Shown one piece after another: positions 36,560 to 60,900 of a DNA stretch of 64,000 nt. The stretch lies in IMG/VR virus record IMGVR_UViG_3300032285_001531. One strand, given 5' to 3'. The DNA comes from a virus (Duplodnaviria; Caudoviricetes). The number at the start of each line of letters is the position of its first letter. The first letter of the stretch is position 1. Below the pieces are notes generated by a model. It was not told the origin of the DNA and ran no database searches. It saw nothing but the letters and a program-made list of their open reading frames with translations. Made by a program: the position numbers and the translations under genes.

Positions 36560-37594
36560 ATGAGTACGATTCTTGTTAAATTCGGTGAGTATCGCAACAA
36601 GCCCGTAATCAATCAAAAATTCACATTAGTAAAAGACTTTCAAACAGGTAAAAAAGGTAACTTTATTACTGTAAAAAATGAAGGTCAATTTGACGTTGCA
36701 ATTGAAGATGTTAGAGTAAAAGTAAATTCCATTAATGATGTAGTATTTGTAGAAGAGGAGCCAACTATGGCAGAAAACGCAATATCATTTGTAGCAAAAG
36801 AAATTAAGCATGTAGAAACTGACGAACAAGCAATGGATCGTATTGCTGCACGTTTTCAAATTTTAGATCAAATGACTAAAGCTGCAATCAATAGTGACAT
36901 TCGTGCTATGATTGTTTCAGGTCCACCGGGTGTAGGTAAATCATTTGGTGTTGAAACACAACTTGAAAAAGCAAGTATGTTTGATAAAATTTCAGGTAAG
37001 AAATTGCGTTTTGAAGTTGTCAAAGGTGCAATGACTGCATTAGGTTTGTATGCTACATTATACAAGTATAGTGATGCTAAGAATGTGTTAGTATTCGATG
37101 ACTGCGACAGTGTGTTCCAAGATGACTTGTCACTAAACATACTAAAAGCAGCACTTGATTCAGGTAAGCGTAGACGTATCTGCTGGAACAGTGATAGTGC
37201 ATTGTTACGTAGAGAAGGTATCCCTGATCAATTTGACTTTAAGGGTAGTGCTATCTTCATTACAAACTTAAAGTTTGAAAATGTTAAGAGCAAAAAACTA
37301 CAAGATCACCTAGAAGCACTAGAATCACGTTGTCACTTTTTGGATCTAACAATTGATACTGAACGTGATAAGATGTTACGTATCAAGCAAGTACATCGTG
37401 ACACTGATGGTGGTCTGTTTAGATCATATGATTTTGATGCTAATCAAGCAGAAGAAATTATGGAATTTATGTCAACTAACAAAACTAAATTGCGTGAATT
37501 AAGTTTACGTATGTGTTTAAAAATTGCTGACTTAGTTAAGATTAGCCCAAGTAACTGGCAGAATCTTGCAGCAAGTACATGTATGAAACGATAA
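36560..37594 (+). CDS. P-loop (AAA-like) ATPase of unknown function
   Basis: GPPGVGKS, VFDDCD, FITN and ALESR. Confidence 0.75.
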   Translation: MSTILVKFGEYRNKPVINQKFTLVKDFQTGKKGNFITVKNEGQFDVAIEDVRVKVNSINDVVFVEEEPTMAENAISFVAKEIKHVETDEQAMDRIAARFQILDQMTKAAINSDIRAMIVSGPPGVGKSFGVETQLEKASMFDKISGKKLRFEVVKGAMTALGLYATLYKYSDAKNVLVFDDCDSVFQDDLSLNILKAALDSGKRRRICWNSDSALLRREGIPDQFDFKGSAIFITNLKFENVKSKKLQDHLEALESRCHFLDLTIDTERDKMLRIKQVHRDTDGGLFRSYDFDANQAEEIMEFMSTNKTKLRELSLRMCLKIADLVKISPSNWQNLAASTCMKR

Positions 37595-37675: not shown

Positions 37676-38686
37676 ATGAACAAATTGTTATATGCTGAAG
37701 AAGTTTTAGAATTATGCCTTAATCAAATCAGCCTTAGCCGATATGATAAAAAGTTTTTCTATAACTTGCAACTATTGAATGTACTTCCTAGAAAATCTAT
37801 TACATCCAATCAGGCTGAATTGTTTAAAAAGGTAGTGTTAAAGTATCACTCACAACTATTAAAGAAACAATATAACTCAATTGAATTAAGTGAGTTGCCC
37901 TGGCAGTTGACCATAACACAAAGTTCACCGGACTTCACTAATGCACAATTTCAAATAAAAGACGGTACACTTGTATTGCGCTGTCCTTATAAGCAACAAT
38001 TTATAAAAGATTTTAAAAGTTTACAATTAATGAATTGGCACGGTGCTGACAAATGTTATTATAGTAAATTTGGGTTAGACACATTTAGAAAAGTAAATGA
38101 TGTTGTAATGAAGTATTATCAGGAAATATCGTACTGTAACGATTTAAAAGATATAATACATGAAGTAAGTAAATATGAAGGTGATTGTATTTGGGATCCA
38201 ACCTTAGTAGAAAGCAATGGTAGATATTATATTGCTGCTATTAATGAACCTCTTTTCAATGCAATAGAGGGTGTTGAATTTAAAACTGATTTCTACTCAT
38301 TGAGTAAAATAACGTCATATGGAATTAAGATAGATAAGAAACTTCATAATACTTTGAATGACACACAGGCTCGATTTATTTCTAATCATGAATATAAACA
38401 TGAACATACTGAAATAGATTCACTAATAGCATTGCTTAAAGAAATAAAATGCGACCAGTTATTAGTAGGCACACGTTATGGTGCATGGAATAACAGTGAT
38501 GATATGTTAAAAGCAATAGCAAATAGTGGAATTCCAGTAATTCATGCAGGTGATCAATGTGAATATCTTTCATTTTCTATGCCAGTATTCTTAAAATTTA
38601 ATTCATTTAGTTATAAAGGATACGGTAGCATGTTCGCAGCAAAGGTAATACACGTAGTAAATTCAACTGAAATTGAGATTAAATGA
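37676..38686 (+). CDS. hypothetical protein
   Basis: Extended -10 TGTTATAAT at 37661-37669. Confidence 0.7.
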   Translation: MNKLLYAEEVLELCLNQISLSRYDKKFFYNLQLLNVLPRKSITSNQAELFKKVVLKYHSQLLKKQYNSIELSELPWQLTITQSSPDFTNAQFQIKDGTLVLRCPYKQQFIKDFKSLQLMNWHGADKCYYSKFGLDTFRKVNDVVMKYYQEISYCNDLKDIIHEVSKYEGDCIWDPTLVESNGRYYIAAINEPLFNAIEGVEFKTDFYSLSKITSYGIKIDKKLHNTLNDTQARFISNHEYKHEHTEIDSLIALLKEIKCDQLLVGTRYGAWNNSDDMLKAIANSGIPVIHAGDQCEYLSFSMPVFLKFNSFSYKGYGSMFAAKVIHVVNSTEIEIK

Positions 38687-40140
38687 CCCAATGTAAAATA
38701 ATAATAAAGGATGAAGTAAACTGTAAGATAGAAGGCTTAGAGTTACCTGAACGTAGAAAACTAATGAAGATGTTTGAGTACGAGGTTCCTGGTGCTCGTT
38801 ATCAACCTGCAGTTAGACTTGGTAGATGGAATGGTAAAGTAAGTTTCTTTAGTTTAGGTGGCAGTTGTTATATCAATTTATTAGATAGAATCATACCTGT
38901 ATTAGATCAGGCAGGCTATGAGATTGAACTAGAAGATTTACGTGAAACGGTACACAACTTCAATTTCACACAGATAACAGAAGATACTTTTGCAAACAAA
39001 GCATGGCCAAAAGGTCACGTTAAAGAAGGTGAGCCAGTTCTATTCCGTGACTATCAAGTAGAGATTGTAAACAACTTTCTTAGTAATCCACAGAGTGTCC
39101 AAGAAGTAGCAACAGGTGCAGGCAAGACATTGATGACTGCAGCATTGAGTTATAGTGTACAGGACTATGGTCGTAGTATCGTAGTAGTACCTAACAAGAG
39201 TTTAGTAGTACAGACTGAAGAAGATTATATCAACTTAGGTCTTGATGTAGGTGTGTATTTTGGTGATAGAAAAGATATTGGCAAACAACACACTATTTGT
39301 ACGTGGCAGAGTTTAAACAATATGATGAAAGCCACAAAAGCAGGTGAAGCAGATTTAACTATAGGTGAATTCTTAGAAGGTGTTATATGTGTAATGATTG
39401 ATGAAGCACATATGGCACAAGCAGACGCATTAAAAACGATGTTAACAGGTCCTATGAGTCATATTCCAATTCGTTGGGGTCTGACTGGTACTATCCCTAA
39501 AGAGAAGTTTCAACACGAAGCATTGTTTGTTAGTATTGGCAATCTAATTGGCAAACTATCAGCAAGCGAATTACAAGATAGGGGAGTATTAGCAAAGTGT
39601 CATGTTAACATTATTCAACTTCAAGACCTAGTAGAATTTAGCAACTATCAAAGTGAACTTAAACATTTACTTGAGGATGCAACTAGACTTGATACTATCG
39701 CAGAACTGATAATGAATATTAAAGGTTCAGGGAACACACTCATACTGGTCGATAGAGTTAACGCAGGTAAGGAACTGATAGATAGATTACCGGGCGCAGT
39801 GTTCGTAAGCGGTGGTACTAAATTAACAGAAAGAAAAGAAGAATATGATGAATTTGCGACAAGTGATGACAAGGTGGCTGTTGCAACTTACGGTGTGGCT
39901 GCTGTGGGTATTAATATACCCCGTATCTTTAACCTTGTTCTTATTGAGCCTGGAAAAAGTTTCGTTCGAGTTATACAATCGATTGGTCGAGGTATCAGAA
40001 AAGCTGAGGACAAAGATTTCGTCCAAATCTGGGACATGACAAGTAGTTGTAAGTTTGCTAAGCGACATCTAACAAAGCGCAAAGAATTCTATAAGGATGC
40101 TTCCTATCCTTTTAGTATTGAAAAATTAAAATACAAGTGA
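38683..40140 (+). CDS. uvsW: SF2 helicase UvsW-like
   Basis: RDYQ, ATGAGKT, DEAH, GLTGT and QSIGRGIR. Confidence 0.9.
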   Translation: MTQCKIIIKDEVNCKIEGLELPERRKLMKMFEYEVPGARYQPAVRLGRWNGKVSFFSLGGSCYINLLDRIIPVLDQAGYEIELEDLRETVHNFNFTQITEDTFANKAWPKGHVKEGEPVLFRDYQVEIVNNFLSNPQSVQEVATGAGKTLMTAALSYSVQDYGRSIVVVPNKSLVVQTEEDYINLGLDVGVYFGDRKDIGKQHTICTWQSLNNMMKATKAGEADLTIGEFLEGVICVMIDEAHMAQADALKTMLTGPMSHIPIRWGLTGTIPKEKFQHEALFVSIGNLIGKLSASELQDRGVLAKCHVNIIQLQDLVEFSNYQSELKHLLEDATRLDTIAELIMNIKGSGNTLILVDRVNAGKELIDRLPGAVFVSGGTKLTERKEEYDEFATSDDKVAVATYGVAAVGINIPRIFNLVLIEPGKSFVRVIQSIGRGIRKAEDKDFVQIWDMTSSCKFAKRHLTKRKEFYKDASYPFSIEKLKYK

Positions 40141-40152
40141 TATAATAACAAC

Positions 40153-40653
40153 ATGAAAATACTAACCTTAGATAACACAGTTTATAATTTAGAAACTCTA
40201 CCGGAGGAAATAGATGATCTTAGATTTGCCATTCTTGACAACAGTAATCCTGCTAATGTTGACTACCACTATATACCTCTAATATTCTTAGAGAGTTTTA
40301 ATAGTCCTGCATTAGTATTACGTGTTGCTGATAGAGTTATTAAGATGCCAGTAGATTGGCAAATACTTATCGGTGAACCTGAATTAGGTGATTTAGAAAC
40401 GTTACCACTGACTAGTATCAATGATAGGGGATTCAAAGCATTTGAATTCAATCCATTAAGTAGTTTCAAGCCCACATTCTGCGATATAGAAATATTAGAT
40501 ATATACCATGATGTTAGTTGGTATGCTCCTAGATTAAAAAACGGGCAGTTCTTATGTATTCCGATTGATGACACACCTAAACCAAGATGTGTTTATTTTG
40601 TAAAAGAAATTAGTAGAAACTGTGAGATTGTAGACTATAGACAGGCATTCTAA
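40153..40653 (+). CDS. conserved hypothetical protein
   Basis: TGATATAAT at 40138-40146. Confidence 0.75.
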   Translation: MKILTLDNTVYNLETLPEEIDDLRFAILDNSNPANVDYHYIPLIFLESFNSPALVLRVADRVIKMPVDWQILIGEPELGDLETLPLTSINDRGFKAFEFNPLSSFKPTFCDIEILDIYHDVSWYAPRLKNGQFLCIPIDDTPKPRCVYFVKEISRNCEIVDYRQAF

Positions 40654-41243
40654 TGGCAAAAAAAGAAAAACTTAGTGCTGATGAAAAGTTCACTGACGTG
40701 GACTTTCCATTGTTTCCTGCACTAGAAGCATTAGATAGAAAAGATTATGGTTGGTATGACAGACTAACAGTAGAACAACAGAAAGGATTTACTCCTTTCA
40801 TGCTAATGACTTGGATGAGTACAATTCAGGGTAATGCAGATTTACAACGATACTATATACAAAGCACAACTTATGCTGCAAATAAGCACATGTTTAATGA
40901 TACAATTATGGATCATAAAAAATTACAGTGGTTAATGTTATGTGCAATCAGTCCTGGCCTGGGAAAGCAATATCACAAGTATCTACCACAGATTAAACGT
41001 AAAGTTTCATTATTGCAAGAGCCAGCAAAGTTAAGTGATATTAAAGATTATTTTAAAAAAGTATATCCTAAAACTGATGATGAAACAATTGCAGCAGTAG
41101 GCGAAGAATATACTAGAGTACAGAAACGGAAGTTTTATTTAGCTCAGCAGTTCCCTGAATTGAAACACGAAGATATTGAACTATTAAATGAATTAGTTAC
41201 TGACGAAGATATTAAGAAGTATGAAGAAGATAGAGGCAACTAA
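40653..41243 (+). CDS. Clamp loader small subunit (gp62)-like
   Basis: FTPFML..WMS..AANKH..LQWLML..KQYHKYL pattern resembles gp62; replication context. Confidence 0.5.
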   Translation: MAKKEKLSADEKFTDVDFPLFPALEALDRKDYGWYDRLTVEQQKGFTPFMLMTWMSTIQGNADLQRYYIQSTTYAANKHMFNDTIMDHKKLQWLMLCAISPGLGKQYHKYLPQIKRKVSLLQEPAKLSDIKDYFKKVYPKTDDETIAAVGEEYTRVQKRKFYLAQQFPELKHEDIELLNELVTDEDIKKYEEDRGN

Positions 41244-41913
41244 GTTTGGATGTGAATTTTGTAAACGTGAGTTTGTACGTGAAAGTACCATGCTCAAGCA
41301 TATCTGTGAGTATAAGCATCGTTGGTTAGATCGTGACCGCAGAGGTAATCAGATTGGCTTTCAGAGTTTTGTACAGTTCTATCAAAAGCACAGTGCAAGT
41401 AAGAAATTAAAAACCTATGAAGAATTTATTAAAAGTGCATATTATATTGCATTTATTAAGTTTGGGTCATATTGTTTAGAAGTTAATTGTGTCAATGTTC
41501 CTAGACTAGTAGATTTTTATCTTAAAGAAAACATCAAACTAGATAATTGGACAAGTGACACTAACTATACAAAGTTTTTAATTGAATACATGAAATCTGA
41601 GAATCCAATAGATGCTGTAGAAAGGTCTATGCAATTCTGTGCTGATAAAGCAATCGAAGAAAAGATTCAACCAAATGACTATCTACGATATGGTAATCGT
41701 AATAAAATTTGCTATGCTATAACTAGTGGAAGAATTAGTCCATGGGTATTGTATCAAAGTGAAAGTGGTGTTAAACTATTGGATGAATTATCAGAAGATT
41801 TGATTAAAATGATCTATGATTATATAAATCCAGTACAATGGGCAGTAAAGTTTAGTAAAGATACTGAAAACGTTGAATTAGTTAAACAAGTTCTAACATT
41901 GGCAAGATGGTAG
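41221..41913 (+). CDS. hypothetical protein with N-terminal zinc finger
   Basis: CEFCKREF...LKHIC. Confidence 0.7.
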   Translation: MKKIEATKFGCEFCKREFVRESTMLKHICEYKHRWLDRDRRGNQIGFQSFVQFYQKHSASKKLKTYEEFIKSAYYIAFIKFGSYCLEVNCVNVPRLVDFYLKENIKLDNWTSDTNYTKFLIEYMKSENPIDAVERSMQFCADKAIEEKIQPNDYLRYGNRNKICYAITSGRISPWVLYQSESGVKLLDELSEDLIKMIYDYINPVQWAVKFSKDTENVELVKQVLTLARW

Positions 41914-42323: not shown

Positions 42324-42539
42324 ATGGAAGCAATTACATGGACACTAGTGGTATATCTGTTGACACCAACATTGATGCAAACAGTTAGTACAGAAAGTTA
42401 CCCGACAATGGAAACTTGTATGGCAGCAGGTGACAAAATAATTCGTAGTAATAAAGAAAAAGCAAACTCATACATGACCACATGTACAGCAGTTTATCCT
42501 AAAGAAAAATCACTAGACGAAATAGAAAATGGCAAATGA
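42324..42539 (+). CDS. 71-aa small two-Cys protein (MEAITWTLVVY...YPTMETC...C)
   Basis: Tandem paralogue of the previous gene. Confidence 0.65.
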   Translation: MEAITWTLVVYLLTPTLMQTVSTESYPTMETCMAAGDKIIRSNKEKANSYMTTCTAVYPKEKSLDEIENGK

Positions 42540-43074
42540 TATTATGCTGGATATTGAAAGTTTAGACACAAGTCCTTATTGTGTTATACTTACTATTGGT
42601 GCAGTCAGATTCGATCCTAAAGGTACAGGTGTAGTTGAGAAACTAGAACTACGTCCTACTATTGATGAACAAACAGAAATTTATAATAGAGTTATAAATG
42701 ATGATACAATTCGTTGGTGGAGTACACAAAATCCTGCAGCATTAGAAGAAGCTATGGGTGATCAGGGTCGCATATCATTTAAAGATGCAATGGAACAACT
42801 ATATAAGTTTTGTTGGAACCGTCGTGCAGTATGGAGTAATGGTGCAGCATTTGATTGTGTTGCAATGGAAACAGCGTGGCAGCAATTAGATATGCGTATA
42901 CCATGGCCCTTCTATACAGTTAGAGATACAAGAACATTGTATGAAATTGCAGGTGTTAAACTTAAAGACGGCGGGCATGTTACTAGTCATAAAGCGGTAG
43001 AAGATGCAGAGCGTCAGGCTATTGTTGTGCAAGAAGCATATAAGAAATTAATGAAAGCAGGATTTATGCGATGA
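42529..43074 (+). CDS. DEDD 3'-5' exonuclease (Rv2179c / exonuclease VIII N-terminal-like)
   Basis: MLDIESL, WSNGAAFD, RDTRT and HKAVEDA. Confidence 0.85.
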   Translation: MANDIMLDIESLDTSPYCVILTIGAVRFDPKGTGVVEKLELRPTIDEQTEIYNRVINDDTIRWWSTQNPAALEEAMGDQGRISFKDAMEQLYKFCWNRRAVWSNGAAFDCVAMETAWQQLDMRIPWPFYTVRDTRTLYEIAGVKLKDGGHVTSHKAVEDAERQAIVVQEAYKKLMKAGFMR

Positions 43075-43652
43075 ATTTTGATATTGATATTGACTTTGGT
43101 GATCGTAGTAAAGTACTTGAAGTAATCAAGTGCATACCTGCAGCCATGCGCAATGTCAAGCCTATGCGTAAACATAACACTGGTGTTTATGTAACAGAAG
43201 TTCCATATGATCCTATCAATGACATGGCTAGTATTGATTATACTGAGGCAGAACAACGTGGGTATATGAAATTAGACTTGTTGAACGTTCATGTGTATGA
43301 CAAGATTAATTCAGAAATGGAATTGATTGAAAATATGCGTGAACCTAATTGGGCAAAGTTAAAAGAAAAAGATTTTGTAGAATCATTGATTCACTTAGGT
43401 AATCAATTTGCTACAATTCAAAAGATGCCTGAACCTATAGATAGTATACCTAGACTAGCAATGTTTTTAGCAATTATTCGTCCTGGTAAAAAGCATTTAA
43501 TTGGATCAACTTGGGCAGAGATAGCTAAAACTGTGTGGGAAAAGAATGAAGATGGATATAGCTTTAAGAAAGCACATGCAATAAGTTATGCATGGTTAGT
43601 TGCTGTACATATGAATCTGTTAGAATCTAAGGCATCCGACGCACAAGAGTAA
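43071..43652 (+). CDS. Minimal DnaE (C-family DNA polymerase III alpha) catalytic-core protein, 193 aa
   Basis: FDIDIDF, KHNTGVY, KLDLL, IRPG and YSFKKAHAISY occur in the same order as DnaE PDxDxD, HAGG, KxDxLGL, RPGP and YGFNKSH. Confidence 0.8.
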   Translation: MNFDIDIDFGDRSKVLEVIKCIPAAMRNVKPMRKHNTGVYVTEVPYDPINDMASIDYTEAEQRGYMKLDLLNVHVYDKINSEMELIENMREPNWAKLKEKDFVESLIHLGNQFATIQKMPEPIDSIPRLAMFLAIIRPGKKHLIGSTWAEIAKTVWEKNEDGYSFKKAHAISYAWLVAVHMNLLESKASDAQE

Positions 43653-44007
43653 TACTACGTCTTTTGGTTTTCTTTTTACTTAATTCGCTGATGCTACATA
43701 TTGGTCCATGAATTATATCTAAGCTCTTATTATTAAAAGTCCTTAAATAGGGCTTGAAAGTAATCCATTCTTCTTTTAAGAACATATTGATTGGAATTAG
43801 TCTGTTTGATTCCCACCACCAAACTTCACCTAATTCTAGGAACTTCTCTTTTAATTGGGGCTGAATAATAGAACCATAGTCGTATATTGTAGTTACGATG
43901 TCATCACGGTTTTGGATGATTCCCACATAGTCCTGTCCCGAATAGGAGCAGACTGTTATGAATGGGTGATTCTCTGATAGTCGTTTGAAAAACTCGTTAT
44001 GTATCAT
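43627..44007 (-). CDS. conserved hypothetical protein
   Basis: EVWWWESNRLIPI motif; divergent TAAATA region. Confidence 0.7.
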   Translation of the reverse strand: MIHNEFFKRLSENHPFITVCSYSGQDYVGIIQNRDDIVTTIYDYGSIIQPQLKEKFLELGEVWWWESNRLIPINMFLKEEWITFKPYLRTFNNKSLDIIHGPICSISELSKKKTKRRSITLVRRMP

Positions 44008-44913: not shown

Positions 44914-45888
44914 ATGTTTGATATTCTGTCGGTCGTTCCTAATAAGAAAAAACTAACGTCAAGTGGATGGTATAGCTTTAATGCTATCTGCTGTCACCAT
45001 AATGGACACAACCCTGATAAACGTCAACGCGGTGGTATTCGTATAGAAGGAAACAAATGGACATATCACTGCTTCAATTGCAATTATAGTTGTGGCTTTG
45101 AATTAGGACATAATATAAGCGACCGCACAAGAGAACTATTGAGATGGTGCGGAATAGATGACCAACAAATCTTACGCTGGAATTTAGAAAGTTTACAGAA
45201 TAAAGATTTATTAGATTTCACTAAGAAGTTTAAGAAAGAAAGACCAGTTGAATTTGCAGCTAAAAAACTTCCTGAATACGCAGAGATATTAGATGACACT
45301 AATCCTAAACATAAAGTTTATGTAGATTATTTGATTAAACGATGTGTTGATTATAAATCATTTGATTTTTACGTAACTCCAGATGATACAGGAAGAAATG
45401 CTAATAGAGTAATTATACCATACACATATCACAAAGAGATTGTGGGTAACACTAGCAGATTCTTAGATACTAGAATACCTAAGTATATTAATGACCAACA
45501 GCCTGGTTATGTGTTTGGATATGACCAACAGAAAGCTGATTGGCAAATATGTATCCTAACAGAAGGTATCTTTGACGCCCTATCAATTCAGGGCTGTGCA
45601 ATTATGCATAGTGATATAAGTCCTGAACAAGCAAAGATGCTAAGACAATTGAACAGACATATTATATTTGTACCAGATCAAGATAAAGCAGGACTAGCAT
45701 TATGTGACAAAGCATTAGAATTAGGATATAGTGTAAGCATTCCTGTTTGGCACGATGACATTAAAGATTTAAATGATGCAGTAATTAAATATGGAAAATT
45801 GCCTACATTGTTAAGTATATTGCAGGCAGCTACTACGAGCAAAATAAAAATAGAAATGCAAAGGAAAAAGATTGTTAAAGGAATATAA
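44914..45888 (+). CDS. gp61: DNA primase (gp61/DnaG-like)
   Basis: Zn finger CCH...HCFNC; TOPRIM EGIFDA and PDQD; KDLND. Confidence 0.9.
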   Translation: MFDILSVVPNKKKLTSSGWYSFNAICCHHNGHNPDKRQRGGIRIEGNKWTYHCFNCNYSCGFELGHNISDRTRELLRWCGIDDQQILRWNLESLQNKDLLDFTKKFKKERPVEFAAKKLPEYAEILDDTNPKHKVYVDYLIKRCVDYKSFDFYVTPDDTGRNANRVIIPYTYHKEIVGNTSRFLDTRIPKYINDQQPGYVFGYDQQKADWQICILTEGIFDALSIQGCAIMHSDISPEQAKMLRQLNRHIIFVPDQDKAGLALCDKALELGYSVSIPVWHDDIKDLNDAVIKYGKLPTLLSILQAATTSKIKIEMQRKKIVKGI

Positions 45889-47287
45889 CCGAGACGTTCA
45901 GCAACTCTTTTTACAAATGATGCTAACAAATGCAGAATTGTACACTAGAGTTATGAACATTATGAATCCTCAAAACTTTGAGAAGTCACTACGACCAGTG
46001 GCTGAGTTTATGACGGAGTATAGTGAGAAGTATAGTTTGTTACCTGATGCTGCACAGATCAAAGCAACAACAGGAGTTGACATTGAACTTATAGATGATT
46101 TCAGTGATAAACATACTGAATGGTTCTTAGCAGAATTTGAATCATTCACTAAACGTCAGGAACTTGAGAGTGCGATTCTTAAAGCAGCCGACTTACTAGA
46201 GAAGGGTGACTTTGGCCCTGTTGAGAAACTAATTAAAGATGCAGTACAGATTAGTTTACAACGTGACATGGGTACAGATTACTTTGCTGACCCTAAACTT
46301 AGATTGAACAAATACTTTAATGCAGGTGGACAACAAAGCACAGGCTGGCCACAGATGGATAGATTACTCTATGGTGGATTCAGTCGTGGCGAATTGAATA
46401 TCTTTGCAGGTGGCTCAGGTTCAGGTAAGTCATTGGTTATGATGAACATTGCATTGAATTGGTTACAGATGGGCTTAAGCGGTGTTTATATCTCATTAGA
46501 ACTTTCAGAAGAACTAACCTCACTGAGAACTGATGCGATGTTAACTAGTATGAGTACAAAGGATATCCGTAAAGATATGGATACAACTGAACTCAAAGTT
46601 AAGATGGTAGGTAAGAAAGCAGGACAATATCGTGTTAAAGGATTACCTGCACAAAGTAACGTCAATGACATTCGTAGCTATCTAAAAGAAGTACAAATTC
46701 AGACTGGCATGAGAGTTGACTTTGTTATGATTGACTACTTGGATCTAGTTATGCCGGTATCAGTTAAAGTCAATCCAAATGACCAGTTTATCAAAGACAA
46801 ATATGTATCAGAAGAATTGCGTAATCTGTCAAAGGAACTTGGTATATTGATGGTAACAGCTAGTCAGTTGAATCGTAGCGCAGTTGAAGAAATTGAATTT
46901 GATCATAGTCATATCGCAGGTGGTATATCTAAGATTAACACAGCAGATAATGTGTTCGGTATCTTTACAAGCCGTAGTATGCGTGAGCGTGGCAAGTATC
47001 AGATTCAATGTATGAAATCTCGTAGTAGTACAGGGGTAGGACAAAAGATAGATTTAGAGTATAATATCGAAACCATGAGAATTACAGACAGCGGGGAAGA
47101 GAGTGATAGTACAAAATACAACAATCCTCAACCCAGCGTCAATGCACTTATGAACAGTCTGAAACCTAGCAGCACAGTAACCTCTGCGACTTATTCTAGC
47201 GAAGAAGAGGATTATGAGGGTCCAAAAGTAGTAGCAAATGTACAGGGTGCAAAACTCAAAGCAATGTTGAATAATCTTAAAAAGTGA
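45872..47287 (+). CDS. gp41: Replicative helicase (gp41/DnaB-like)
   Basis: AGGSGSGKS, SLEL, IDYLDL, ASQLNR and MKSR. Confidence 0.92.
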   Translation: MLKEYNRDVQQLFLQMMLTNAELYTRVMNIMNPQNFEKSLRPVAEFMTEYSEKYSLLPDAAQIKATTGVDIELIDDFSDKHTEWFLAEFESFTKRQELESAILKAADLLEKGDFGPVEKLIKDAVQISLQRDMGTDYFADPKLRLNKYFNAGGQQSTGWPQMDRLLYGGFSRGELNIFAGGSGSGKSLVMMNIALNWLQMGLSGVYISLELSEELTSLRTDAMLTSMSTKDIRKDMDTTELKVKMVGKKAGQYRVKGLPAQSNVNDIRSYLKEVQIQTGMRVDFVMIDYLDLVMPVSVKVNPNDQFIKDKYVSEELRNLSKELGILMVTASQLNRSAVEEIEFDHSHIAGGISKINTADNVFGIFTSRSMRERGKYQIQCMKSRSSTGVGQKIDLEYNIETMRITDSGEESDSTKYNNPQPSVNALMNSLKPSSTVTSATYSSEEEDYEGPKVVANVQGAKLKAMLNNLKK

Positions 47288-51127: not shown

Positions 51128-51163
51128 CTTGTAGCATGTTTGACAACATGTTATAATAATTGC

Positions 51164-51850
51164 ATGTATAATCCCACTAAATTCAATTATCAACGATTCG
51201 ATAGAGTAACAATCAATGGTTCACGTAAATATGCTACACCAGATGGTGAAAAGCTACCAAGTGTAACAACAATCCTAGAAGCAACTAAAAGTGAAGAAAG
51301 TAAACAAGCACTTAATGAGTGGCGCAAACGTGTAGGTGTTAAGAAAGCACAAGAGATTACCACAGAAGCAGCAGGACGTGGTACACGTATGCACAAATGG
51401 ATAGAAGATTACATTAAGACTGGTGTGATCGGTGATCCAGGAAGTAATCCGTATAGCATACAAAGCCATAAAATGGCTCAGGAGATTATAGGCAAAGGTC
51501 TAGTTAACTGCAATGAAGCTTGGGGTGTAGAGGTTCCATTATATCTCCCTAAAATCTATGCAGGCACCACTGATTTATGTGGTGTACATGATGGACAAGA
51601 AGCTATTATGGATCACAAGCAAAGCAACAAAGTCAAAAAGCGTGAGTGGATTGAGGATTATTTCGTACAATCTGCTGCATATGCTGAAGCACACAATGAA
51701 GTATATGGAACTAAGATACGTAAGGGTGTTATTTTCATGTGTACTGCAGATGTTCAGTACCTAGAATTCATAGTCGAAGGCACTGAGTTTGACAAATACA
51801 GAGATATTTGGTTCCGTAAAGTGGAGGAATATTACACCAAGTTTCTATAG
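51164..51850 (+). CDS. PD-(D/E)XK exonuclease (Cas4-like phage family); start probably 51164
   Basis: LPSVTTIL, RGTRMH, E...AGTTD...DHK and QSAAY. Confidence 0.85.
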   Translation: MYNPTKFNYQRFDRVTINGSRKYATPDGEKLPSVTTILEATKSEESKQALNEWRKRVGVKKAQEITTEAAGRGTRMHKWIEDYIKTGVIGDPGSNPYSIQSHKMAQEIIGKGLVNCNEAWGVEVPLYLPKIYAGTTDLCGVHDGQEAIMDHKQSNKVKKREWIEDYFVQSAAYAEAHNEVYGTKIRKGVIFMCTADVQYLEFIVEGTEFDKYRDIWFRKVEEYYTKFL

Positions 51851-51908: not shown

Positions 51909-54900
51909 ATGGCAATAATACAACTTTCCAAAATTCAACACCGTACAGGGGCTAACGTAGATTTGCCCCAACTAGCTGAGGGCGAATTAGGTTTCGCCAC
52001 AGACGAGCGTAGACTTTACATAGGTAATGACGCAAATCTGTTTCCCCCTTTAGGGACTAGTACTACTACTCAGACTGAGATACTCACAGAGGTTTCTACT
52101 CTGAATTGGTCAAGACTGGGTGGTTCTGCAAATACAACATTAAACATAGAGGCCCCTGTAGAAGATGGGCAGTTAATTGTTGCTAATTCAAATACATGGA
52201 CTAATGCAGGTGGTACTTCAGCTTTGCCTATCAATTTAGGTAATATTCAAAATCTTAATATCGGTGGTGGTTTAAATGGATATGTACTTACAACTGACGG
52301 CTCAGGTAATCTAAGCTGGCAGGGTAGCGGTGTTGTGACATATGCTGTTGCTAATGTTTCACAAGCTAATCCTGCAGTCGTAACAACTACTGAAGATAAT
52401 GCAATCTTAACTGGATTGCAAGTTACAATCTTTGGTGTTGGTGGTATGACCCAGCTAAAGACAGCCGGTGCAAGTGGCACAAACAAATTCTATGTAGTAA
52501 AACAATCTAACAGTACATTCACCCTGTACTCGGACAGTACATTATTATCAGCAGTTAACAGTTCGGCATTTACTGCAGCAGTTCCTAATACAGGTAATGC
52601 AGTCACATCATTCTATGAAAACGGCACAGGTAATCCAGGTGGTGGAAATAGAAATATTCAATTCAATGATGGTTCTGGATTATTTGGTGGTATTGGTACT
52701 TTTACATTTGATAAAACTACTTCTAATTTAAGTTTAACCGGTAATGCAAACATAACATATGATATTGCTGCAAATAATTTCATAGGTAAGTTTACAGGAC
52801 CAATAGGAAACACAACAGCCAATACAGGTAACTTTACGACTATCAATGCTGCTTCTACTATTAGCACTTCAGGAAATGTTTCTGCAGGTGGTAATGTAGT
52901 AGTCACTGGAAATATAAGCACAGGTAGTAATTTAACAACAGCAGGCAATTTAAGTGTAACAGGTAATACTAAGTTAACAGGTAAATTGTCAATGGGTGGT
53001 AATATAGTAGGCAATTTAGTACCAGATGCTGACATCACTTATAATTTAGGTAGTCCAACAAGACGTTGGAAAGATTTATACATATCAAGTAACTCACTCG
53101 TTATTGGTAATGGTACATTATCTACTAGTCCTACTGGTGACTTTAATTTTTCAAACTCAAACATAACAACATTAAATGCTAATTTAGGTAATCTAGCAAC
53201 TGCTAATTTCTTAGGCGGCACACTAATTGCATCATCAAGTTCACAACCTAACATATCAACTGTTGGTAATCTAACAAGTTTGAATGTTGCTGGTATAAGT
53301 AATTTAGGTCCAGTAAACAATGTGTTTATTGGCAACTCTACTGCAAATTATGTATTAACTGCTACTGATGCAAATGGAACCATGCGTTGGTTACCAACCC
53401 AGTATATTGAAACTCCTGCTAAAGGCTCAAATCAAAGCGTACAGTTTAATGTAGGTAATGTAATTTCTGGCAGTGCTAATTTCTTATTTGATAAAGATTT
53501 TAATAAATTAACAGTTCCTAACCTTGTTGTCGGAACAACAATTAACGGCAATGCCACTATTAGTGTTACTGGTAATATAACTGGTAATGCCATTAACGCA
53601 ACTACACTTAATGTTAGTGGTGCTGTAATCGCATCAAACACAGTTAGTGCTGCAGGCAATCTTACATCAAACGGTATACTTACTGTTAATAACAATGCAG
53701 CTATCACTGGTAATTTAAGTTTAACTGGAACCATTACTGCTAATCTTACAAATGCAGGCAATGTAAGTGTATCAGGTAATACAACTACTTCACGTTTATC
53801 TGTAGTATCTAATGTAGTTGCTAACGGTAATATTACTGGTGGTAATATATTAACATTGGGTAGTATATCTGCTGGTGGTAATGTAGATGCAAATAATCTA
53901 AATGCAGCAGGCAATGTCATCATTACTGGACAAGCAAACGCAGTGCGTTTTGTAGCTAGTGCAGAAATTAAAGCTGGTCAATATATTCAAGCTGCTGGTA
54001 AAGCATATATCGGTGAAGATGTATTAGCAAATGGTAATGTTTCTGGTGCTAATATTTTAACTTTAGGTAATGTTTCAGCAGGTGGAAACTTAACTATAGC
54101 AGCAAATGCACAAATCAACGGTAATGCTACTATTACTGGCACTATTGCTGGTGGTAATATTACTACTCTTGGCTTAATCAGTGCAAGAGGTAATATCAAT
54201 GGTGCTAATATTACTGCTAATGGATTTATCACCACAACAGGTGATGTAACAGCAAATGGTGCAATATCAGCAAATGGTAATATTACTAGTTTAGGAACAA
54301 TAACAGCTAACGCATTGAACGTTGGTAATGTATCAACAACTGGTAATTTAACAGTCAACAATCTTGCTGTAGCAAACTTTGTAAGTTCATCATTACTACC
54401 AAATGCAGATATTTCTCTTGCATTGGGTGGCCCAACTAAACGTTGGTCAACATTATATGTTGGCAACACAATCAATATTGGTGATAAGACTATTGTTTCA
54501 GATGCAAATGGTATTGGATTTGGTGCTGCATTATTCAATCAAGCTAATGCAAATATTGCTAACTTAAGAACAGCATATGCAAATCTACCAGATACCGGTA
54601 ATATCAAGATACCAGGTGGTACTTTAGGTGCAATTCTTAAAACAGACGGTAATGGTAATATAAGTTGGGGAGCACCTAGTAGCTTTGTATCTGGTGCAGC
54701 CGGGTCAAACACACAAGTTCAGTTTAACGATGCTAATATAATGGCTGGTAGTGCGAACTTTGTATTCAACAAAACAAGTAACACATTAACAGTAGATAAG
54801 ATCATTGCAAATGGTAGTGGTCTAACAGGAATGAATGGTGCAAATGTAACAGGCACAGTAAGTTCTGCTAGTGTAGCAGGAACAGTATCAGTAAATGCAC

Positions 54901-57900
54901 AACCAAATATTAATAGTGTTGGTAATCTAACAGGTCTAGTGGTAGGTAATTTAGGTAATGTTGATTTCAGTAATACAACTGCAGTAACTTTAAACAGTAA
55001 TAGTCTACGAGTTCCAAATGGTTGGACTCCTGGAATGTCAATCATTGCTGTTAGTCCAACCGCTAATAGTAATGCAGACGCAGGAAAATTAAGTTGGGGT
55101 TATTCATCTCTATTACAAAATGGCAATAGTAATGTAGTTGTTGATACTGCTGCAAATATTCGTTTTACTGCCAACGGTGTAGTTAACGTAGTTACTATCG
55201 CAAACACTGGATTATTCACTTCAAATCTAACAGTTAATGCAATTGCTAATTTAGGCTCAGTTAGTAATGTAAAAATTACTGGTGGTGGACCAAATCAAAT
55301 ATTAAGAACAGATGGTAACGGTGTGTTAAGTTGGGTAGCTCCTGCAAGTACTAGTGCATTAGCAAATGCAAATAGTAACATAACAGTTGAAGCCGCAAAT
55401 ATAAATCTATCAGCAAATGGCACACCTAACGTATTACAAGTAACTGCAACCGGTGTTAATATATCTAATGAAACAATATCTGGTACTTCTAATATCGGTA
55501 CATTAAATATAAATGCTATTGCTAATCTTGGTGCAGTTGCTAATATAAGAATTGGAGGTAGTAATGTAGGATGGTTACTGCAATCAAATGGTGCTGGTGG
55601 AGTTGTTTGGACACCGCCAGCAAGTACAAGTGGCTTAACAAATGGTAACAGTAGCGTTTCTGTTGATCAAAACGGTAATATAAGAATAACTGCAAACACT
55701 GCACCTAATGTAGTTGTCATTGCAAATACAGGGCTTTTCACAAGTAATATTTCAGCGACAGGTACATTAACAACAAATGGTATCGCTGTACTAAACAACG
55801 GTAACATAACACTACCGGGTACTGCTAGTACTGCAGGTAAAATATATTGGCCAGGCACTGCTGCTTGCTCAGCACCACAACTTACTACATATTCAGGTGG
55901 TACACGATTAGTATTACAAGACTCTATTGCTACTAGTGGTTCTGCAGGATACACAATGGGTATTGAATCTGGTAATATGTGGTTTGGTACTGATGTAGTT
56001 GCAGCAGGATTTAAATGGTATGGTGGCATAACTCAAATTGCGACATTAAGTAACGCAACTGGATTTAGTACAGTTGGCAATGTTGCCGGTATTAACATTA
56101 ATACAACAGGTAATGTAAGCGCAACAGGTAATGCTAATATTGGTAATAATGTAAACACTGTTAATGTTAATGCAACCGGTAGTATAATAGCAGCTAATAT
56201 CACTGCTAATACAGTCATAAGCACAACTGGTAATATTAACTCAGGCAATGAGAATGTAACCGGTAATGTACAAGCAGGTAACTTAAGAACAACAGGTAAT
56301 GTAAGCGCAACAGGTAACATCACAACTGCAAACTTCTTTGTAGGTAATGGTTATTACTTGACAGGTGTATTAAGAGAACCAACAGCATTAATTGCTAATG
56401 GTACTTTAAGTAATGTCAGCATTCCAGCTGCTAATGGCTCCATCTCAGTAGTAGCAAATAACGTAAGTGTTATGACTATTACTAGTGTTGGTGCAAATAT
56501 CAGTGGTAATGCAAGTATTTCAGGTAATGCTAACGTAGGTAACTTAGGAACTGCGGGTAATGTTACAGCAAATTACTTTATTGGTAATGGTGCATTATTA
56601 ACAGGCATTGCAACAAGCAATCAATTGTTTAATGGAAATAGTAACGTAACTATTGATTCAAATGCTAACGTAAGAATTACTGCAAATGGATCAGCAAACA
56701 TCGTAAGTTACATTGGTAATGGTGTATATCCTGCAAATGCTAACATAGGAGCAATTCAGCCGCAAAATACTTATTATCGTGTTGGTAATGTATATGTATC
56801 ATCTGGTGGCGATTACGGACATTTCTCTACTCATGCATGGTACACTGGCGGTATGTGGATGGGTGATGGTGCAGTTGGCGGATTATTCCAAATAGCAGGA
56901 CCTACATTTAATTGGTTCAAAGGTTCTGCATGTACAAGTGTCACATACACTAGTTTGATGTCACTTGATGCTAATGGAAATTTATTCGCAAATGGTACTA
57001 TATCATCAGTAAGCAATATAACCGGTGTTAATATAATTGGTACTAATATAAGTGCCACAGCTAATGTAACTGGTGGTAATATCATAACTGCTGGTGCAGT
57101 AAGTGCTACTGGTGTAATAAGTACTGCTGGTAATATTGTAAGTAACAGCTATCACTTCTTAAATTCATATGCTGGCGCCACTGAAGGTGGTCAGATTGTT
57201 ATGTCGTTTGCTGGTGGTAACGCTTATGCTAATGCAGTAGCTTCAACATGGAACATAGATGTTGGTCCTGCAAATGACTTCCGTATATTCAATTATAACT
57301 CGGGTGGTGCGGTATCAATTCCATTCATAATTCGTCAATCAAATAATCAAGCAGATTTCACTGGAAATATTGCTACTGGTGCTAATGTTAATGCAGGCAA
57401 TGTTAATACTACCGCTGCAGTATCAGCAGGTGGTAATATTACTACAACACAGTTCTTAAATGCTGGTAGTATGAGTGTTTCTGGCACTATTAATGGTGGC
57501 GCAAATGCTAACATAGCAGGTAATTTAAATCTAACAGGTAATGCAAATGTAATAGGTAAGATAAATGTATCCAATAGCATTAGTATGGCTAATGGCTCTC
57601 TGAACATAATTAATTGGGGTACTGCTGGTTATGCACCGCCTAGTATTGTAGCAGCTTATGGAAATGGCACAAAAATTGTATTGTTTGACAGTAAAACATC
57701 AACTGCTACTGCTCTTGGCTACACAATGGGTATTGATACAAGTACATTCTACTTTACCAGTGATGTAAACTTTAAATGGTATACTAATGGCTCACTAACA
57801 CCAGTAGCAACAATGACTCCTACAGGATTCAGTGTCACTGGCACAGTTAATGCATCCAACTTTGTTGGTAACGGATCTGGTCTTACTGGTATTTCAGCAT

Positions 57901-60900
57901 CAAATGCACTTAGTTTGGTAAACGGTTCAAGTAATGTTGTAGTTGACGTAAATGGTGCAATAAGAATTGGTGCAATAGGTGTGCCTAATGTGTTGACCAT
58001 CACAAACACAGGCACAGTAGTGACAGGTACAGAAAGCGTAACTGGTGCTATTACTGCTAATGGTGCAATTACAACGGCAACAACTTTAACTGCAGCTAAT
58101 TTGAGTATTACTGGAAATGTAGCATTTACTGCTGCAAACGTAAGTTTAGGATCTAATACTGCTGTTAGAATTACTGGTGGGGGTCCTAATCAATTCTTAA
58201 AAACAGATGGAAACGGTAATTTAAGTTGGGTTTCTGCAGGTGGTACTGCAAACGTTGCAGGTGCACCAACTCAAGTACAGTTTAACACTGGCGGTGCAAT
58301 GGATGCTAGTGCTAACTTTACATTTGATAAAACAACTAATACATTAGTAGTCACTAATGCTACAAATTCAGGTAACTTAAGCGTAGGCGGTAATGCAACT
58401 GTAGCAGCTAACTTAAGTGTTACTACAGGCAATATCAGTGCTAGTGGTAACGTTAGCTTAATTGGCAATAACGTAACTGGTAAACTAGTGTTTAACAATA
58501 ATGGTGTTGCAGCTCCGATATTAAATGGTGTAAGTAATGGTACTAGAACAATTTTCTATAATTCAGCAGGAGCTCAAGCTACTAACTTTGCAATGGGTAT
58601 AGATAGTAGCACATTATGGTACAGTGTTCCGGATACAGCTAGTTTCCACAGATGGTACGGTGGAACAACTCAGCTTGCATATCTAACTGGAATTGGATTC
58701 TCTGTAACAGGTAACATATTTGCTAGTGCTAATATTAGTACTATTGGCAATATTCTTGCTGCAGGTTTACTCAGTGTTACTGGAACAATTTCAAGTACTG
58801 GTGCTATTGCTACCCCAAGTACAATCAGTGCTACAGGTAATATTAATACTACAGCTACACTAAATGCAGCAGCATTGTCTGTAACTGGAGCAGCAATTTA
58901 CGGTGGTGTAATTAACACAACAAGCACAATGAGTGCTACTGGTACAGTAACGGCAGGTGGATTTATCACTGCAGGTACAATTAGTGCTAATGGTACTATT
59001 ACATCAAATACTGCAATTAACACTACAGGTACTATAAGTGCTACTGGTAACATTACTACTGCTGGTTACATACAAGCTGCAGGTCTTGCTTCTAGCGGTA
59101 ACATGGCAATCCCAGCAGGTAATTCATTATTGATGGGAACAAATGCTGGCACATCAGCTAAGATAATATGGGATGCAGCTGGGACAGGAGCACCAACATA
59201 TAGTGCATTTAGTCCAGGTACAAAATTAGTATTGTATCCTGCAACTGCTGCGCCATACACACCAAGTGCAAGTGAGGTTGGATATGCAATGGGTATTGAA
59301 GCCTACTCAATATGGTATAGTACAAGCAATTCTACAGTTGGTTTCCATAGATGGTATGCAGGTAATACACAAATTGCAAACTTAAACTATCAATCATTTA
59401 CTGTAGCAGGAAATTTAAGTGCAGTTGGTAATGTTTATTCAAATAACGAAAACGTAACAAGTAATGTACAAGCAGGTAACTTAAGAACAACAGGTGTAGT
59501 ATCTGCAGCAAGTACAATAACCGGTGGCAATTTAGTAACAGGAGGCACAATAAGTTCATATGGTATTGCAACATTAGGTAATGTTGTTGTACCAACAGGC
59601 GGTACTATATCTGCAATCGGCAATATCATTGGTGGTAATATAGTAGCAAATGCAACTGTCACTGGTGTAACATTAAGTGCTAGTGGTAACGTAACAGGCT
59701 TTAACTTAACAACTGGCGGTGTAGTGAGTGCTGCTAGTAACGTAACCGGTGGTAATATCTTAACTGGTGGTTTAATAAGTGCTGCAGGTAGTGTTACAGG
59801 TATAAGTCTTGTTGGTAATCTATACACAGTTCGTAACGGTGGTATTTACTGGCCTAGTGATACTAGTGGTGACGTTGCAACTATCACTTATCTAAGATCA
59901 GGCGCTGATACTGGTACCCTAGAACTTTCTGTACAAAATGATACAGACGATATTATTAGATTAAATGCAAGTGGTGGTACATCAGTTGTTGGTAATTTAA
60001 CAGTTGGTGCTAACATAACAACAACTGCAAATGCTAACGTAGGTAATTTAAATGCAACAAGTAATGTACAAGCAGGTAACTTAAGAACAACTGGATTAAT
60101 AAGTGCTACTGGTAATGTAACAGCTAGTAATTTTATCACAACTGGCACGATAACTTTAGGTGGTGTCATCAGTGCTACTGGTACCCCAGCTGCTATCGCT
60201 GCTACTGGTACAATTAACACTTTAAGTACAATTAGTGCTACTGGCACAATTACTGGTGGTAATATTGTAACCGCAGGCGCAGTCAGTGCAACAGGTATAA
60301 TCAGTACTACAGCTAATATTACTACTGCAGCTAATATTAGTGCTACTGCAGGAATATTTGCTAGTACAATTAGTGCTGTTGGTAATATCAACAGTACAGG
60401 TAACATTATAACTAATGGTACAATATGTACTATAGGATTGATAGTAAGTGCAGGTGCAAGTGCTAACTTTGCCTCTCCGATATATGCAACATCATTAATT
60501 AGTACTACTGCAACAGTTACTAGTGCTGTTTTAAGTGCTACAGGAAATGTAAATGCTGCTAATGTAATATCTACTGGTAATGTAAATGCTGGTACTAACA
60601 TAAGTGCTACTGGTAATATTACTTCTGCAGCAAACATAAGTACTAGTGGTAATATTATTGCTGCTGGCACAATGAGTTCTACTGGATTAGCGACACATGG
60701 TAGTTTAAGTGTCGTTGGTAGTTCTACTCATACTGGTGCAATCAATACAACTAATGCTATTAGTGCTGTTGGTACGGTTACTGCAGGTGGATTCAGTACT
60801 ACAGGAAATACTATTACTGGTAATTTAAGCGTTACTGGTAACGTAATTGGTACATTAACTGTTCCTGGTACTGCAAATATTGGTACTGCAAATGTAACTA

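Follow-up and report, generated by a model that had tools for sequence, protein, structure and literature searches.

A split, minimal form of the alpha subunit of bacterial DNA polymerase III (Pol III alpha) has been described from sequence in the group 2.2 jumbo phages, where it was proposed as a model of the ancestral enzyme (Iyer et al. 2021, Viruses 13:63; PMC7824862, section 3.4.1, Evolutionary Considerations). Here we describe a related locus in a 64,000-nucleotide stretch of DNA from a virus (Duplodnaviria; Caudoviricetes; IMG/VR record IMGVR_UViG_3300032285_001531), the whole of which we refer to as the window. It encodes a protein of 193 amino acids (aa) that is a member of phrog_11778 and is the C-terminal subunit (the C-half) of the split enzyme just described. 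We consider it highly likely that in a jumbo phage of this group it makes up, with a second subunit, a minimal C-family (Pol III alpha-like) nucleotidyltransferase whose two parts associate non-covalently. As in the described system, relatives encode an N-terminal nucleoside triphosphate-binding protein (the N-half) far apart from a C-terminal Mg2+- and template-binding protein of the phrog_11778 family (PMC7824862), the replication context is T4-like (UvsW, UvsX, UvsY, gp32, DnaG and DnaB), and relatives possess a family B polymerase. It differs in that the copy in the window comes from an uncultured lineage, and a DEDDh exonuclease gene is inserted immediately before it, the stop codon of the one overlapping the start codon of the other, a linkage of which we found no mention in Iyer et al. 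2021 (PMC7824862). This linkage and the rare natural fusions of the two halves are small additions to an already described family.

There are three other systems with which the locus can be compared. First, bacterial Pol III alpha (DnaE1; 2hnh, 2hpi, 3e0d, 5lew) and PolC (3f2b) have the same Pol-beta-like palm, with a DxD motif and a third Asp, and the same RPG and (F)xKSHA finger motifs, but the bacterial enzyme contains about 1160 aa in one chain where the phage enzyme contains about 360 aa in two, the stretch from DxD to the third Asp is about 150 residues rather than about 60, and its PHP, thumb, beta-clamp-binding, HhH and OB domains are not found here. Second, E. coli alpha-epsilon (DnaE-DnaQ) likewise has a separate DEDDh 3'-5' exonuclease polypeptide beside a C-family catalytic piece, but the exonuclease in the window is Rv2179c-like (PF16473) and not DnaQ, and its linkage is not kept across the family; E. 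coli epsilon, moreover, docks on the PHP domain of alpha, and the mini-polymerase has no PHP domain. Third, the intein-split DnaE of cyanobacteria is also a catalytic subunit made from two distant genes, but there are no intein halves here, the split falls within the palm, immediately ahead of the DxD strand, and assembly must be non-covalent.

The C-half carries a compact set of Pol III alpha motifs. The DIDID (residues 4-8), HNTGVY (35-40), KLD (67-69), RPG (137-139) and YSFKKAHA (163-170) sequences that a preliminary description, made from the sequence alone, had listed in DnaE order within 193 aa were all located, in a gene with a clean ATG start and TAA stop (Table 1), and they contain the catalytic residues D4, D6 and D69 together with K67, and the finger residues R137, K166 and H169. 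Comparison with PHROGs matches residues 3-186 of the 193 to phrog_11778 ('DNA polymerase', E 6.6e-54), with weak matches also to phage polymerase families of the DnaE type. When 86 members with identity down to 28% are aligned, D4, D6, K67, D69, R137 and P138 are invariant, and D8, H35, G38, K166 and H169 are at least 90% conserved. A metagenomic collection clustered at 90% contains 5898 homologous proteins of about 190-197 aa, and the homologues form 378 clusters at 50% identity, in which full-length members have about 185-215 aa. The motifs are therefore far beyond chance, given the strength of the phrog_11778 match, the near-constant length of so many homologues and the correspondence of the motif residues to invariant columns of the family.

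In GenBank, 96 phage records contain a match to the C-half, with identities of 35-48% and a coverage of 94% or more, and among the matches listed most are to phages with records larger than 280 kb, namely the PA5oct-like phages, Atu_ph07, the PBECO4/121Q group, RsoM2USA and XaC1; the split enzyme is found in cultured phages of E. coli, Klebsiella, Pseudomonas and Agrobacterium. The C-half of the window is at most 48% identical to those of cultured phages and about 75% identical to those on IMG/VR contigs, and a protein on a 124-kb contig (P0001) is 96% identical to it. An exact 40-mer from the gene had no match in the JGI metagenome contigs. A megablast comparison of 12 kb of the window with GenBank phages gave no match, and there is no near-identical phage among them.

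The predicted structure of the C-half points the same way. An AlphaFold2 model (predicted local distance difference test score, pLDDT, 95; predicted template modeling score, pTM, 0.88) has Pol III alpha as all of its top 11 Foldseek matches. Alignment with VIA-align places 188 residues on Taq Pol III alpha (3e0d_A 460-841; Z 9.4, root mean square deviation 3.9 A) and also covers E. coli alpha 399-781 and M. tuberculosis DnaE1 418-854, and in the ranking ten C-family entries come first, with the next Z only 3.6. A profile of the C-half family compared with all PDB sequences finds Pol III alpha chains only (E 2.8e-5 to 3.5e-4), and its alignment to E. coli alpha equates KxD with residues 553-555, RPG with 639-641 and FKKSHA with 756-761. 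The index-finger segment (R137/P138, K166, H169) aligns with FRPG 638-641 and NKSH 757-760 of E. coli alpha, and by analogy these finger residues would bind the deoxynucleoside triphosphate (dNTP) and the template. As modeled, the C-half is equivalent to the section of Pol III alpha that starts at the catalytic DxD strand, includes the third Asp and continues into the fingers, minus the thumb and other inserts. The structural comparison with DnaE and PolC proposed in the preliminary description thus returns Pol III alpha only, with the catalytic Asp residues kept, and we agree with its view that a protein so far below DnaE in size is too small for a canonical, processive replicase. Its characterization as a palm plus partial fingers core stands as regards the DnaE-like fold and fails as regards a complete palm, for the N-terminal half with the GS loop is absent.

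These data also bear on whether the open reading frame (ORF) is simply what is left of a complete host dnaE that was captured and is now decaying, as might be supposed from its being about one-sixth the size of bacterial DnaE and finding no Pfam match alone. Decay should be visible as variable truncation or lost Asp residues, the signs that the preliminary description had named, and neither is seen: length and Asp residues are conserved over hundreds of clusters, the catalytic columns are invariant, the AlphaFold2 model is very confident, and the gene neighborhood is fixed from Pseudomonas to Agrobacterium phages. The chance that this ORF is a remnant is negligible.

A Pol-beta-type palm needs a preceding helix and GS loop for nucleotide binding. 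The C-half begins three residues before the DxD strand and, because only these three residues precede it, cannot hold this helix and loop. We therefore turn to the second gene. The full records of five relatives (Atu_ph07, the PA5oct-like PAC2 and three IMG/VR contigs of 223-260 kb) were searched in six frames with PF07733 (DNA_pol3_alpha), and each of the five has exactly one site above the curated cut-off, spanning profile positions of about 18-98. In four of the relatives the site is found downstream of the C-half, on the same strand and at a distance of 36-47 kb; in Atu_ph07 the distance is about 182 kb. Two of the N-half loci could be read as ORFs (of 168 and 180 aa; Table 1), both of which have the sequence GVGRGSS and end just short of the DxD strand, and in two further relatives the PF07733 site lies inside stop-free open frames of 168-181 aa. 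The N-half family is phrog_11127; it has at least 7998 metagenomic homologues, and among the 120 listed most are of 168 aa, all of those with PF07733. The two families are also distributed alike, with 103 GenBank phage records for the N-half against 96 for the C-half and nearly identical counts by host genus. The preliminary description had held that its interpretation would fall if the missing domains proved to be encoded elsewhere as a split DnaE, and in the relatives this is what we find for the palm half; it is not what we find for PHP and HhH, which have no Pfam match there. Two other features of the N-half are that its first 75-90 residues have no DnaE counterpart and a low-confidence fold in the model of a fused form, and that a gene for a GroES/gp31-like co-chaperonin lies two genes downstream of it in relatives.

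Natural single-chain forms of the enzyme also exist. There are three such metagenomic proteins of 375-376 aa: P0152, which was found by an exhaustive representative search, and P0391 and P0392, which were found by a word-index search and are 78-81% identical to P0152. In P0152 the two PHROGs families are matched back to back (phrog_11127 at residues 8-180 and phrog_11778 at 190-374), PF07733 crosses the junction (residues 97-207, E 4.8e-16), and the linker between the halves is about 12 residues. The model obtained for P0152 (pLDDT 82) can be aligned over 285-292 residues with DnaE1, Pol III alpha and PolC (Z 21.0-19.6; E. coli alpha 271-773), and the next fold after the C-family is a CCA-adding enzyme at Z 3.6. 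These fusions, together with the sequence and structure matches, show that the two halves belong together. In a quick maximum-likelihood tree with midpoint rooting the fusions group together in a single clade at the tips, within the stand-alone C-halves, from which we tentatively suggest that fusion is probably secondary, a re-fusion of halves that were separate. A different family, phrog_21652, was considered as a candidate fused form; it gave a weak match only and was dropped in favor of PF07733.

The division of a catalytic subunit between two distant genes recalls cyanobacterial DnaE and raises the question of whether a split intein might splice the two products together. Neither an N-intein (about 100 aa) nor a C-intein (about 35 aa) would fit at the split: the N-half stops directly behind the GRGSS helix region, only three residues of the C-half precede DxD, and in the fused form about a dozen residues span the gap. 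Splicing of this kind can hardly be what joins them, and because there is no room for intein halves the association would be non-covalent.

The other modules of DnaE appear to be missing altogether. PHP (PF02811) and HHH_6 (PF14579) have no match in the records of the five relatives (OB was not searched for), and DNA_pol3_finger (PF17657) gives only a sub-threshold match there, inside the C-half gene of Atu_ph07. In the structural alignment of the C-half there is no room for a thumb, and 193 aa is too short for PHP, thumb, clamp-binding/HhH and OB modules. Three of the five relatives (Atu_ph07, PAC2 and one IMG/VR contig) also encode a family B polymerase (PF00136); the two contigs without it are only 63-74% complete. 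The separate PolB that the preliminary description had suggested looking for is therefore found in these relatives; in the window no Pfam polymerase match turned up among the large ORFs scanned, and no dedicated PF00136 search of the window was made. Judged from gene content, the enzyme is minimal and two-piece and sits beside a separate replicase.

We propose the following mechanism. The C-half supplies the beta-strands with the metal-binding carboxylates (D4, D6 and D69) and K67, as well as the helical index-finger segment, and the N-half, as seen in relatives, carries the Pol-beta-type helix and the GS nucleotide-binding loop. Docking of the halves would create a palm with partial fingers corresponding to E. 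coli alpha 271-773, without the PHP, thumb, clamp-binding, HhH and OB parts. We infer that a heterodimer forms, and likewise its activity and substrate: it may carry out short-patch templated DNA synthesis and so serve in repair, primer extension or the filling of gaps while a family B enzyme acts as the replicase. Processive replication is made unlikely by the lack of a thumb and of clamp-binding parts. In the clade to which the window belongs, the coupled DEDDh exonuclease may serve the pair by editing or trimming 3' ends, as an optional add-on rather than a core subunit.

Several points weigh against this interpretation. First, there is no N-half in the 64-kb window: tblastn found nothing, and the best match of a hidden Markov model (HMM) built from 123 N-halves has E 0.49, although the same HMM detects PAC2, Atu_ph07 and one IMG/VR relative, used as positive controls, at 1e-44 to 1e-84. 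Likewise, regular expressions of the GRGS/FERF type run over six frames of the window turned up only the motifs of the C-half. The window extends only 20 kb downstream of the C-half, and a partner 36-50 kb away would fall outside it; an N-half in the window's own genome is suggested by synteny in the relatives. Second, the 193-aa protein alone matches no Pfam family at E <= 0.1, including PF07733. Third, our literature searches found no bench study of any member of the split-enzyme family, only the sequence-based paper of 2021.

The lack of a thumb, clamp-binding motif, HhH or OB domain for holding duplex DNA invites another explanation, in which the halves do assemble but form no templated DNA polymerase; like many enzymes with the Pol-beta fold, the pair might instead be a terminal transferase, modify RNA 3' ends or synthesize a nucleotide signal. 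The next fold neighbors after the C-family are indeed a CCA-adding enzyme, MenT toxins and Rel/SpoT, and relatives already have a family B replicase. However, the finger residues that have been kept (RPG and KxxH) are those conserved in DnaE and PolC, the model tracks the Pol III alpha fingers to E. coli residue 773-781, and the gene resides in a UvsW-primase-DnaB replication block that is fixed across the group. We consider a non-templated activity improbable.

The gene upstream of the C-half encodes an intact DEDDh 3'-5' exonuclease. It matches PF16473 over profile positions 1-175 of 177 (E 1.3e-33) and phrog_255 ('exonuclease') with E 1.6e-40, and its DEDDh motifs are intact, namely DIES at residues 8-11, NGAAFD at 104-109 and HKAVED at 154-159 (H154-x4-D159). 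The ATGA overlap with the C-half gene, which the preliminary description had pointed out, was confirmed (Table 1) and raises the possibility of translational coupling. The position of the exonuclease was scored in 76 related loci with enough upstream sequence: in 55 of these it precedes the C-half by no more than about 11 nt, in 11 it is 100-950 nt apart from it, and in the remaining 10 it is absent upstream. PF16473 is also absent from the complete genomes of Atu_ph07 and PAC2, both of which keep both polymerase halves, and the family itself is widespread, occurring in 453 phage records of many unrelated types that include the 'exonuclease A' genes of T4-like Acinetobacter phages. From the locus counts, the absence from Atu_ph07 and PAC2 and the generic nature of the family, the coupling is therefore a trait of an environmental clade and not of the enzyme family.

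These observations do not favor the two-protein machine that the preliminary description had envisaged, in which the 193-aa protein is a self-sufficient mini nucleotidyltransferase working with its coupled exonuclease. The ATGA overlap, the frequency with which the exonuclease is directly upstream and the integrity of its motifs are what would be expected of such a pair, but the protein begins at the DxD strand without the GS nucleotide-binding half of the Pol-beta fold, the N-half is conserved in all five relatives, natural fusions exist, two genomes with both halves lack PF16473, and the exonuclease family is generic. We regard self-sufficiency as very improbable, and the exonuclease as not a defining partner. 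Within the two-subunit polymerase that we prefer, the exonuclease could have a proofreading or 3'-end-trimming role for the mini-polymerase. A bolder idea, which we think rather unlikely, is that this clade has recruited its own proofreader, the exonuclease binding the C-half directly without a PHP domain to give a three-piece proofreading polymerase (N-half, C-half and exonuclease).

The features of the locus and of the two N-half genes are listed in Table 1. The window has a G+C content of about 36% and contains homologs of the T4-type large terminase, gp32, UvsX, UvsY, UvsW, DnaG and DnaB. The primase and helicase genes that the preliminary description placed close by are indeed just downstream (44914-47287), the primase gene starting within 1.3 kb of the C-half and the DnaB-type helicase gene following it. 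The order UvsW, two small ORFs, 230-aa ORF, C-half, convergent small ORF, primase and DnaB is kept in Atu_ph07, PAC2 and 80 IMG/VR loci. The 230-aa ORF resembles a PAC2 gene that carries the annotation C2H2-type domain protein, the Pfam C2H2 match here being sub-threshold (E 0.047), and identity searches gave no lead for the 166-aa ORF. The primase is preceded by an ORF of about 250 aa, which is a virion structural protein in Atu_ph07; tblastn matched the window's ORF only in IMG/VR loci. The convergent 126-aa ORF shares 26 nt with the 3' end of the C-half gene and adjoins the C-half in all 82 loci, including PAC2 and Atu_ph07, and is thus more constant than the exonuclease. It gave no lead in Pfam, PDB sequences or the protein Atlas, and its product might be a further partner.

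Table 1. Coordinates of the features discussed, in the window unless a locus of a relative is named.
Feature	Coordinates	Strand	Remarks
AAA+ protein	36560-37594	+	344 aa; phrog_1250 'unknown function'
336-aa ORF	37676-38686	+	no Pfam or PHROG match
UvsW-type helicase	38683-40140	+	Pfam ResIII, Helicase_C, UvsW_N
Conserved upstream block, UvsW and three small ORFs (166, 196, 230 aa)	38683..41913	+	phrog_11279, phrog_11758, phrog_11058
Rv2179c-like/DexA-like DEDDh 3'-5' exonuclease	42529..43074	+	181 aa; PF16473 and phrog_255
ATGA stop/start overlap, exonuclease/C-half	43071-43074	+	read as gcgATGAat; TGA stop over ATG
C-half: C-terminal (metal-, template/dNTP-binding) subunit of split minimal Pol III alpha	43071..43652	+	193 aa; ATG start, TAA stop
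Convergent ORF, function unassigned	43627..44007	-	126 aa; phrog_11637, E 4.2e-32
DnaG-type primase	44914..45888	+	Toprim_2, Zn_ribbon_DnaG
DnaB-type helicase	45872..47287	+	DnaB_C, E 4.5e-20
Second exonuclease gene	51140-51850	+	other family (phrog_298, E 3e-54)
Giant ORF	51909-61355	+	3148 aa
N-half gene of a relative	L087:1498-2004	-	168 aa
N-half gene of a relative	L086:1189-1731	+	180 aa

Four other genes of the window are included in the table. The AAA+ protein lies between a UvsY-like gene and the 336-aa ORF and has weak AAA matches only, with a marginal one to RFC4 (E 0.86), so that its identity as a clamp loader is not established. The 336-aa ORF is directly upstream of UvsW, with a 4-nt overlap. 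The second exonuclease gene is located just upstream of the giant ORF.

No relative of the bacterial replicase core is known that is smaller than the split minimal Pol III alpha. This enzyme is abundant, with thousands of metagenomic copies of each half, and under strong selection, and its presence in cultured phages makes genetic study possible. To this family the window adds one more member and a clade-specific exonuclease linkage, and no new kind of system. A role beside a family B replicase would bear on the evolution of C-family polymerases and on the division of labor between replication and repair in giant phages, and the three-piece polymerase, if it is real, would be a natural model for the assembly of replicases of the alpha-epsilon type from small parts.

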